Shown here: positions 1,810 through 3,145 of the stretch, piece by piece
Layout: each line of letters opens with the position of its first letter
Position numbering within the stretch: the stretch's first letter is position 1
Source of the DNA: Escherichia phage ECO104 4-5-2
Sequence record: OR844702
Strand: one strand, 5' to 3'
DNA length: 43,051 nucleotides
Program-made: the position numbers and the translations under genes
Notes under the pieces: generated by a model
What the model was told of the DNA's origin: nothing
The model's input: the letters and a program-made list of their open reading frames with translations, nothing else
Databases searched by the model: none

Positions 1810-2955
1810 ATGAGCAGCATACTGATTTGGGATATTGAAACGCAGAACGTACCTTACTACGGAGGAGTGGCAACTCCATACTGTCCAGATAACTACATTG
1901 TGGAATCAGGATTCAGGATTGACCGTACTAATCCAGACGGCACAGTAACGTGTAGTGATGTAGGCAGCGTGCGTTACGAGTCACGGAAGGAGTTCATCGC
2001 AGCGCCTAGTAATCAGTGGTTACCTATTCAAGACGATACTTGGCTGATGGTCATGCACAACGCCGCATACGAGATTAGCTGGGCACTGACGTTTGCTAGG
2101 GAAGAGTTTGAGGCATTCCTGAAAAGAGGTGGACGTGTATTTGATACAATGCAGGGGCAATACATCGCCTCTGACTTCCAAGACCTTTACCCGTCACTGG
2201 ATGAGACGGCCCCTAAGTACGGCGGCAGTCATAAGGTTGATGGCGTTAAGCTACTGTGGCAGCAGGGCGTATTAACAGCAGACATTGACCCGGTACTGCT
2301 GCATGAGTACCTAACAGGGCCGGAAGGGGACATCGTCAATACCGCACTGTGCTTCTACGGGCAATGCGCATTGTTCGCTGAGCGTGGGCAGATGCCTATG
2401 GTCTGGGAAAGGATGGATAGTGTAGTGGCCTTAGCCTACTGTGAGTTCAATGGTGTGTACGTAGACATGCCTACAGCCAGAGCTAACCAGGAGGAACAGG
2501 AGGACGCTATCGCAGCACTGAAGCAGATGCTGCAAGGCTTCTTACCTGAATTACCCGAGGGCTTTGAGTTTAACTGGAACAGCGGCTACCATATGAGCGC
2601 GTTAGTATATGGTGGTATGGTTAAGTACAAGTGTAAGGTTCCGTATGACCCGCCTAAATACGTAAAAGTTGAAGTCCAAGACGGAGTGTATAAGTCCGGT
2701 CGCAATAAAGGTCTGCCCAAGATGGTAAAGGTTGATAGCGCAGAGGAAGCTATGAAGTGGGGTGAGCGTCTGTATAAGTTCGAAGGGCTTGTACGTATTC
2801 AGGACCTGCCACCAGTACTACAAGAGAAGTACGCAGAACGCGGAGAGTTCCGAGGTGCTCAGACATTAGCAGATGGTACGCCTGTATTCAGTACAGGTAA
2901 GGACGCTATGAAAGAACTGGCTAACTATTTTATTGGGATTGAAGATGATGAGTAA
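1810..2955 (+). CDS. DNA polymerase part I (3'-5' exonuclease domain and N-terminal thumb region)
   Basis: Likely start is ATG 1810 (MSSILIWDIETQN, the Exo I DxE motif at the N-terminus as in T7 gp5). The ORF-track start at 1681 is an upstream extension. Ends at a point collinear with T7 gp5 'VDDPE'. Confidence 0.8.
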   Translation: MSSILIWDIETQNVPYYGGVATPYCPDNYIVESGFRIDRTNPDGTVTCSDVGSVRYESRKEFIAAPSNQWLPIQDDTWLMVMHNAAYEISWALTFAREEFEAFLKRGGRVFDTMQGQYIASDFQDLYPSLDETAPKYGGSHKVDGVKLLWQQGVLTADIDPVLLHEYLTGPEGDIVNTALCFYGQCALFAERGQMPMVWERMDSVVALAYCEFNGVYVDMPTARANQEEQEDAIAALKQMLQGFLPELPEGFEFNWNSGYHMSALVYGGMVKYKCKVPYDPPKYVKVEVQDGVYKSGRNKGLPKMVKVDSAEEAMKWGERLYKFEGLVRIQDLPPVLQEKYAERGEFRGAQTLADGTPVFSTGKDAMKELANYFIGIEDDE

Positions 2956-3145
2956 GTTTCAAGACATAGAGTACCATCTGATGATGCGACGTAAGCTAAA
3001 CAGTTTAAGGGATTCAGAAGACATATACCTTACAAGCCGCCAAGAGTTAATTAATTTAATAGATTGGATGGGAGTTGCTCTAGATGATTTAGACGACTTT
3101 GATTTACGTGAGATTTTTAAAATCCTTAAGGAATATCATGACTAA
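2945..3145 (+). CDS. Hypothetical small protein (66 aa) encoded on an AT-rich insert splitting the DNA polymerase gene
   Basis: ORF in a different frame that overlaps the part I stop and the part II start (ATGACTAA overlap). The segment is strikingly AT-rich relative to flanking polymerase sequence. No recognisable motif. Confidence 0.35.
   Translation: MMSKFQDIEYHLMMRRKLNSLRDSEDIYLTSRQELINLIDWMGVALDDLDDFDLREIFKILKEYHD

Follow-up and report, generated by a model that had tools for sequence, protein, structure and literature searches.

In this work, we have analysed the family-A DNA polymerase gene of Escherichia phage ECO104 4-5-2 (sequence record OR844702), a podovirus with a genome of about 43 kb; the whole stretch studied, 43,051 nucleotides (nt) long, is called here the window. 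The gene is in pieces, namely part I, a small open reading frame (ORF) that we call ORF-A, and part II, which contains an intron. Our comparisons suggest that ORF-A is probably a horizontally acquired accessory (cargo) gene, lodged in a polymorphic slot of a polymerase that was already split, and that the break is the probable footprint of a homing endonuclease. The initial annotation of the window had proposed that insertion of the ORF turned one gene into two, a proposal that we abandon, since the same break occurs without the gene in the phages vB_EcoP_PAS7 and vB_EcoP_P64441 (hereafter PAS7 and P64441) and in five metagenomic relatives. These two phages, both Slopekvirinae, are the nearest named relatives of the window (88% over 63% of the query and 80%, respectively), and a genus Cepavirus has been proposed with PAS7 as its type (PMC11522302). 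Over the 3.4 kb tested, the window is 100% identical to the GenBank entry 'Salmonella phage S.Kent 1-2-1'.

The polymerase gene is broken at a collinear point

The features around the break are the following.

1810-2955, + strand: DNA polymerase part I, 381 amino acids (aa), with the exonuclease domain and the N-terminal part of the polymerase domain (PHROG 9556, 4e-105)
2918-2955, + strand: AT-rich tail of part I, about 12-13 codons without counterpart in unbroken Koutsourovirus polymerases, placed from alignments and the GC profile
2948-2955, + strand: upstream putative coupling overlap ATGAGTAA, ORF-A start codon plus part I stop
2948-3145, + strand: ORF-A, putative cargo gene, a 65-aa acidic helical ORFan; the in-frame alternative ATG at 2945 would give 66 aa
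3128-3145, + strand: downstream putative coupling module within the 3' end of ORF-A, formed by the Shine-Dalgarno-like AAGGAA (3128-3133), a 4-nt spacer and the ATGACTAA overlap
3138-3365, + strand: part II exon 1, 76 codons, ending ...TGRLSASNP

Part I begins with MSSILIWDIETQN, a start common to the relatives, and ends in ...ANYFIGIEDDE with a TAA at 2953-2955, in frame 1. ORF-A lies in frame 2, with ATG codons at 2945 and 2948 and its TAA at 3143-3145, and part II runs in frame 0 from ATG 3138 (MTKLASDFFKAYNELTLRQK), its protein beginning MTKLASDFFKAY. The order part I, ORF-A, part II hence occupies three different frames split by TAA codons, on which ground an intein at the insert was rejected; 65 aa is also smaller than a mini-intein. 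The overlapping start and stop codons that would couple the ORF to both halves, as first described, are indeed there, ATGAGTAA upstream and ATGACTAA downstream (3138-3145, part II start plus ORF-A stop) spanning 8 nt each. Segment 3128-3145 differs by one base only between the window and L003, a contig that carries a second copy of ORF-A, and the last codons of ORF-A, LKEYHD, are invariant in both homologues. The ORF had been given 66 aa; the small ORF is present, but 65 aa is the more likely length, because only ATG 2948 is conserved in the L003 homologue and gene callers give 65 aa (P0001).

The insert is markedly AT-rich, as had been noticed: the guanine-plus-cytosine (GC) content of 2945-3145 is 34.3%, against a window mean of 48.0% (standard deviation 3.7), and just 0.16% of 201-nt intervals of the window reach a value as low. 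The low-GC tract starts at about 2918, within the last 12-13 codons of part I. The sole other equally AT-rich stretch of the window, 38649-38917 (GC <= 34% over 201 nt), extends from the last part of a 54-aa ORF (38549-38713) into the interval that precedes an ORF with its start at 38814.

Alignment to unbroken Koutsourovirus polymerases confirmed that the polymerase is encoded by separate cistrons meeting at a collinear point: no residues are lost at the junction, and the split clade has 12-13 extra ones (ELANYFIGIEDDE). In what we take to be the sequence of T7 gp5, the junction falls between ...VDDPE and KQAA, in agreement with the initial annotation. A duplication of the M-x-x-L-A-x-x-F segment, present on both sides of the slot, is conceivable: in the MAFFT alignment the tail of part I and the head of part II share columns, but with a DNA identity of only ~40%. 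The structural position of the junction was taken from an AlphaFold2 (AF2) model of the joined polymerase and not from a solved structure, because sequence matches in the PDB start ~35 or more residues past the junction. In this model (predicted local distance difference test score, pLDDT, 80; ~62-72 at the junction) a helix at 364-374 is followed by a six-residue loop at 375-380 and a second helix at 381-403, the tail of part I forming the helix end and the short loop. Such an interhelix loop would plausibly tolerate a break. In some clade members (L001, which is PAS7, and other 404-aa variants of part I) a 23-residue insertion, FDAYLADVKGTQQYIDVNDWQDSWTYSRE, is found in a long beta-hairpin region of part I, which makes this site another indel-tolerant spot of the polymerase.

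The slot at the break is polymorphic

A search with part I returned 54 homologous clusters (90% identity) of 378-416 aa, all stopping after ...YFIG(I/M/V)E..., and because they share the same end the break is considered fixed in a sizeable clade. This clade comprises the E. coli/Salmonella Slopekvirinae (PAS7-like, 'Cepavirus') and is recognized by the 12-13-residue tail and an ATGAnTAA stop/start overlap. The junction was inspected in 13 clade genomes, out of roughly 54 clade lineages, with the following result.

Slot empty (7): PAS7, P64441, L007/L008, L009, L012, L013 and L018
Slot holding ORF-A (2): the window and L003
Slot holding ORF-B, a 65-aa ORFan unrelated to ORF-A (1): L010
Slot holding an N6/N4 DNA methylase gene (PF01555, 2e-29 on L006) (2): L006 and L011, the copies being 60% identical
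Halves re-fused in frame with the tail retained as a linker (...KELADYFISMGKDDHASGFFKAY...) (1): L016

PAS7 and P64441 have neither ORF-A nor the intron, and their polymerase is annotated as two coding sequences (CDSs) with an 8-nt overlap at the position of the break, the junctions reading ...YFIGMEENE* / MSNKASEFFKAY in PAS7 and ...YFIGMEQDG* / MAKLASDFFKTY in P64441. The initial annotation had named, as an observation that would speak against an insertion, relatives with a two-gene polymerase and a conserved intergenic gene of normal GC; what is seen comes close to this, as two-gene relatives do exist, except that their slot is empty and no GC-normal gene is found in it.

The way in which the slot is filled follows a pattern. 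In the empty-slot relatives part II starts at the ATG that overlaps the part I stop, which in the window is the ATG of ORF-A, and each cargo gene, of which at least three unrelated ones occupy the slot, begins at this shared ATG. At their 3' ends ORF-A and ORF-B form a new ATGAnTAA overlap, and the methylase genes end 7-8 nt short of the part II start. The GC content of every cargo gene lies below that of the flanks (32-35% versus 49%), and the closest relatives of the methylase are methylases of unrelated phages (74-83% identity). In L016, a contig from SRR10873863, the fused polymerase (75-1742) runs through the former tail (...YFISMGKDDHASGFFKAY...), and its sequence suggests that a small deletion has secondarily healed the split.

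The polymerases nearest to that of the window are those of L006 (methylase) and L007 (empty), and the nearest to that of L003 are those of L011 (methylase) and L002 (empty); judged from these sequences, slot states are scattered over the polymerase tree. Identity along the polymerase gene, taken in 60-nt bins, ranges from 0.68 to 1.00, swings that at the sequence level bear the signature of frequent recombination. If recombination is indeed frequent, the conserved polymerase flanks could act as homology arms for swaps of the slot content.

ORF-A is a gene of narrow distribution

Proteins were searched for relatives of ORF-A by a word search of 5.8 billion sequences and with HMMER on 1.84 billion representatives, and one other cluster was found (P0002, 78% identity, no indels). 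It is encoded on L003, a Logan contig from SRR10902857, at the identical position between the polymerase halves and with 8-nt overlaps at both ends. The polymerase DNA of L003 differs by 23-28% from that of the window, and the ORF-A DNA by 19%. The 37 differences between the two ORF-A copies are distributed 11/6/20 by codon position; nonsynonymous divergence (pN) is 0.127 and synonymous divergence (pS) 0.49, a pN/pS of 0.26 in the annotated frame, compared with 1.06 and 1.66 in the other two. By these sequence measures ORF-A is a real protein-coding gene and not a chance ORF. Its synonymous divergence (33 sites) is below the 0.70-0.84 of the flanks, which hints at a later transfer, with a sample too small to carry weight.

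The 190-nt insert might instead be unexpressed, either because it is a non-coding spacer between cistrons, of the kind known from gene 43 of phage 44RR, or because ribosomes skip it by frameshifting or bypass to give one polypeptide. We consider this extremely improbable. The frame-specific purifying selection and the 65 codons without indels at 19% DNA divergence speak against it, as do the arrangement of three cistrons in three frames and the insert RNA, which folds no better than shuffled sequences (z = 0.09) and matches no Rfam family. For a bypass there is a superficial likeness to the take-off and landing sites of T4 gene 60, in that the stop comes right after the last codon of part I and near-identical 9-mers flank the insert; but a ribosome landing on the matching codon would meet a TAA immediately, and the junction codons vary among the relatives (GAG TAA, GGC TAA, GAT TGA) with no conserved slippery sequence. 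The spacer version has the precedent of split gp43 genes with non-coding spacers (PMC2988022).

ORF-A encodes an acidic protein (pI 4.7) whose AF2 model consists of four short helices (pLDDT 77). No match at E <= 10 was obtained in Pfam, PHROG or NCBIfam, and a Foldseek search of the model against the PDB and BFVD gave nothing at E <= 0.001. In 50,697 phage records, tblastn matched nothing beyond identical copies of this phage; peptide and DNA pattern scans of IMG/VR did not find ORF-A, and neither complete E. coli genomes (blastn) nor plasmids (tblastn) contained a match. Neither an intrinsic terminator nor, on the + strand, a sigma-70-like promoter was found in 2600-3500, in a scan that does not cover promoters of phage RNA polymerases, and the insert lacks terminal inverted repeats of the transposon or miniature inverted-repeat transposable element kind. 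A group I intron at 2945-3145, already doubted initially, was rejected: a permissive Rfam scan of 1500-6000 matches only 3356-4042, leaving 2945-3145 blank, in agreement with the folding score given above.

The break is a probable homing-endonuclease footprint

Unbroken polymerases are encoded by the Koutsourovirus phages KKP 3828 (774 aa, single CDS) and SDFMU_Pec (single CDS), and in Drulisvirus and other relatives a single tblastn piece extends across the junction. Outside the clade, L014 and L015 (Koutsourovirus-like) and the more distant L017 are split at the same place, and all three have orthologous HNH_3 genes (153-155 aa, 1e-19) between the polymerase halves. In these HNH-bearing forms part I ends ...DAMKGIAAW + LTSTSST* and part II begins (V/M)..AQFF..., whereas the unbroken relatives read DAMNGLAAQGFEF at the split site, the Koutsourovirus sequence there including ...GCTGCACAAGGCTTC.... 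Neither the tail ELANYFIGIEDDE of the clade nor the LTSTSST of the HNH-bearing forms is present in unbroken polymerases. On sequence grounds the HNH-bearing and unbroken lineages form a classic endonuclease-plus/minus polymorphism, and because the HNH gene stands at the same site in three lineages, beside an unbroken Koutsourovirus gene, the break is probably a homing-endonuclease footprint. In L017, a PF26128 (Gad2) gene (6323-6874) lies directly downstream of the HNH-split polymerase.

A homing-element footprint had also been suggested in the initial annotation; this stands as probable for the break, given the HNH genes at the junction in L014, L015 and L017, but not for ORF-A, which is not detectably a degenerate endonuclease. 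ORF-A does show a presence/absence polymorphism like that of homing endonuclease genes, being present in the window and L003 while the same nucleotide is empty in PAS7, P64441, L007, L009, L012, L013 and L018. As a candidate homing endonuclease or HNH remnant it was rejected: it has no blastp similarity to the split-site HNH proteins of L014 and L015, and no His/Cys nuclease motif (two His and zero Cys in its 65 aa).

Was the polymerase split by ORF-A itself, or by a parent element of it? The empty slots would then be precise deletions and the other cargo genes replacements. Several observations are in keeping with such a history. The AT-rich tract is unbroken from the tail of part I (~2918) through ORF-A; direct repeats of 9-11 nt bound the insert (ATGA(G/C)TAAG in the window, ATGACTAAGTT on L003), and recombination between them would give an exact empty junction; and ORF-A is present in two deep sublineages with a divergence similar to that of the flanks. 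We nevertheless find it unlikely, since there are two clusters of ORF-A against 54 of part I in the 5.8 billion proteins, the slot is empty in seven of the 13 genomes inspected, no feature of a nuclease or of mobility is present in ORF-A, and a known splitting agent, the HNH gene, splits the same site in three lineages outside the clade.

Intron and endonuclease genes in part II

The remaining features of the polymerase region are these.

3366-4093, + strand: group I intron in part II (Rfam RF00028, 51 bits, E 3.6e-11), with an HNH endonuclease gene at 3468-4010 (HNH_3, 2e-9)
4094-5026, + strand: part II exon 2, palm and fingers (DNA_pol_A PF00476, 4.8e-20)
5013-5489: free-standing HNH_3 endonuclease gene, 158 aa, overlapping the polymerase 3' end

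The splice ends of the intron are canonical, exon 1 ending in U3365 and the intron in G4093, and the spliced product SNPNMQQLPRE, with the break between ...TGRLSASNP and NMQQLPRE, matches intron-less relatives. The intron is separate from the ORF-A insert, from which it is only 220 nt downstream. Genes of T7-like phage polymerases are reported to harbour a group I intron with an HNH endonuclease, an observation said to come from Bonocora and Shub in 2004; the intron at 3366-4093 is likewise in the polymerase gene, and the insert at 2945-3145 has no intron features. The polymerase ORFs of many relatives end at the intron site too, giving proteins of 469-477 aa that terminate in ...SNP. HNH genes like that at 5013-5489 are also found at the polymerase 3' end in PAS7, L007, L009 and L012, and the 5013-5489 product is ~29% identical to the split-site HNH of L014 and L015.

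A model for the acquisition and expression of ORF-A

We propose that the polymerase gene was first fragmented by a free-standing HNH endonuclease, which subsequently disappeared from the E. coli clade, with the tail and the coupled start staying behind. With the conserved polymerase flanks as homology arms, co-infecting phages would swap the slot content by ordinary or break-induced recombination. Ribosomes that end part I at TAA 2953-2955 would reinitiate at ATG 2948 to translate ORF-A, and the 3' end of ORF-A, AAGGAA-N4-ATGACTAA, would hand them over to part II. The insert would take over the start by which part II is coupled and provide a new one in its place, so that polymerase expression would be kept. 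The two halves presumably reassemble into an active enzyme, as judged from the viability of the PAS7 (PMC11522302) and P64441 isolates, and since such cultured empty-slot phages are viable the split enzyme would not need ORF-A. The methylase that occurs as an alternative occupant suggests, by analogy, that ORF-A may have a host-directed or counter-defence accessory role, which we put forward with low confidence.

In a different reading, ORF-A would serve the polymerase as a third subunit or as an assembly factor; produced together with the halves, it would aid their reassembly or bind a processivity partner. Its location exactly between the halves and its apparent coupling to both would suit such a function, for which there is a parallel in the mobile-element-derived tails that are essential for assembly of a split NrdA (PMC3045599). 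This is very unlikely in our judgement: the cultured PAS7 and P64441 and most metagenomic relatives keep the split without ORF-A, a methylase or an unrelated ORFan can fill the slot instead, and the fold matches of ORF-A are not significant.

Several points weigh against ORF-A as an acquired cargo gene in a previously split polymerase. Its translational coupling is deduced solely from the overlaps, and the endonuclease origin of the break from its common position, because no HNH remnant is detectable in the clade, where no HNH gene was found in the break either. ORF-A occurs in two deep sublineages, and its protein has diverged as much as the polymerase (pN 0.127). Instead of having arrived recently, it may therefore be an old resident repeatedly lost; the empty state is exactly what a deletion between the ATGA(G/C)TAAG repeats on its flanks would yield. 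Slot content is seen in no more than 13 of the clade's roughly 54 lineages, the relatives are for the most part metagenomic or Logan assemblies, and a single 7-kb contig (L016) provides the re-fused polymerase.

A bolder extension of the cargo-gene model is that the break is a dedicated cassette site. A gene that starts at the ATGAnTAA and restores the part II start would get coupled expression for free, would be hard to lose without killing polymerase expression, and would spread through the repair of double-strand breaks triggered by the intron HNH and the 3'-end HNH, with ORF-A and the methylase as counter-defence cargo hitch-hiking on homing. We regard this as rather doubtful, although conceivable.

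Comparison with other split phage genes

The closest parallel is gene 43 of the T4-related Aeromonas phages 25 and 44RR, whose product gp43 is split as 43A/43B (Petrov et al. 2010, via PMC2988022). According to the passages of PMC2988022 that treat these phages, a seg homing endonuclease gene fills the gap of phage 25 and 44RR has a non-coding spacer there; the two halves are active and co-purify, and it is likewise unclear which of the occupants made the break. As far as those passages describe it, the shared traits are an essential replicative polymerase made as two cistrons, one site, and a gap whose content varies among related phages. Compared with that account, in which the polymerase is of family B, here it is of family A, from a T7-like podovirus, and the TGRLS...PNxQ motif lies downstream of the break, which falls between two helices. 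The gap here is of zero length (8-nt overlap) or contains non-endonuclease cargo (two ORFans and a DNA methylase), and ORF-A and ORF-B appear plugged in by overlapping stop and start codons at both ends, the methylases by the start overlap.

In Aeromonas phage Aeh1, nrdA is split by the free-standing endonuclease gene mobE, and the C- and N-terminal tails born from the insertion remain on the halves and are essential for assembly (Friedrich 2007; Crona et al. 2011, PMC3045599). Comparable tails here are ELANYFIGIEDDE in the clade and LTSTSST in the HNH-bearing relatives; unlike the Aeh1 break, that of the window has no endonuclease and holds a different small gene. Phage morons, or accessory hotspots between conserved core genes, are marked by presence/absence polymorphism, lower GC and unrelated alternative occupants. 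The slot described here is similarly polymorphic and low in GC, with unrelated alternative occupants that include a methylase, but unlike a moron site it interrupts a gene that is whole in sister genera, and its cargo, for which neither promoter nor terminator was found, would rely on coupling.

In clade B T7-like cyanophages such as S-TIP37, the family-A polymerase is encoded clade-wide in two ORFs (passages of PMC12695635 and bioRxiv 10.1101/325100). There, by the account in those passages, the exonuclease domain is a separate ORF, whereas here part I combines it with the N-terminal third of the polymerase domain; cargo-slot behaviour is not described in the same passages. In the literature searched no paper describing this cargo slot was found, and the paper on PAS7 (PMC11522302) makes no mention of the polymerase.

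What sets the present case apart from known split genes is that the break can be of zero length, that it is reused by non-endonuclease cargo including a DNA methylase, and that cargo seems to be plugged in through stop and start codons. The relatives offer a natural series at one site of an essential gene, from unbroken through endonuclease-occupied, empty-split and cargo-occupied to re-fused, which would trace the passage from insertion of a selfish element to a stable two-subunit polymerase and to a reusable accessory-gene locus. The junction also points to a permissive split point in a T7-type family-A polymerase (the interhelix loop upstream of TGRLS) of possible use in enzyme engineering, and the two ORFans and the methylase are candidates for functions in phage-host conflict. 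For annotation, a polymerase given as two CDSs at this place does not reflect a frameshift error, and small ORFs in between should be kept.

Additional observations

A third recurrent polymerase break, ...RTxIK(T/A/P)(F/P)SFA*, falls directly before the QYG motif (L016 75-1742, L018 4630-5163, P0059-P0116). It is represented by more than 50 protein clusters of 551-580 aa, including one from Klebsiella phage RCIP0099, and HNH-like genes lie downstream of it in L016 and L018.

Two short records labelled 'Listeria phage LM 4-11-1 / 4-14-1' (OR847098.1 and OR848392.1) are 100% identical to this enterobacterial podovirus, and further identical records are labelled as phages of Salmonella and of E. 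coli O26/O121. The host labels look unreliable, because identical records carry Listeria, Salmonella and E. coli names.

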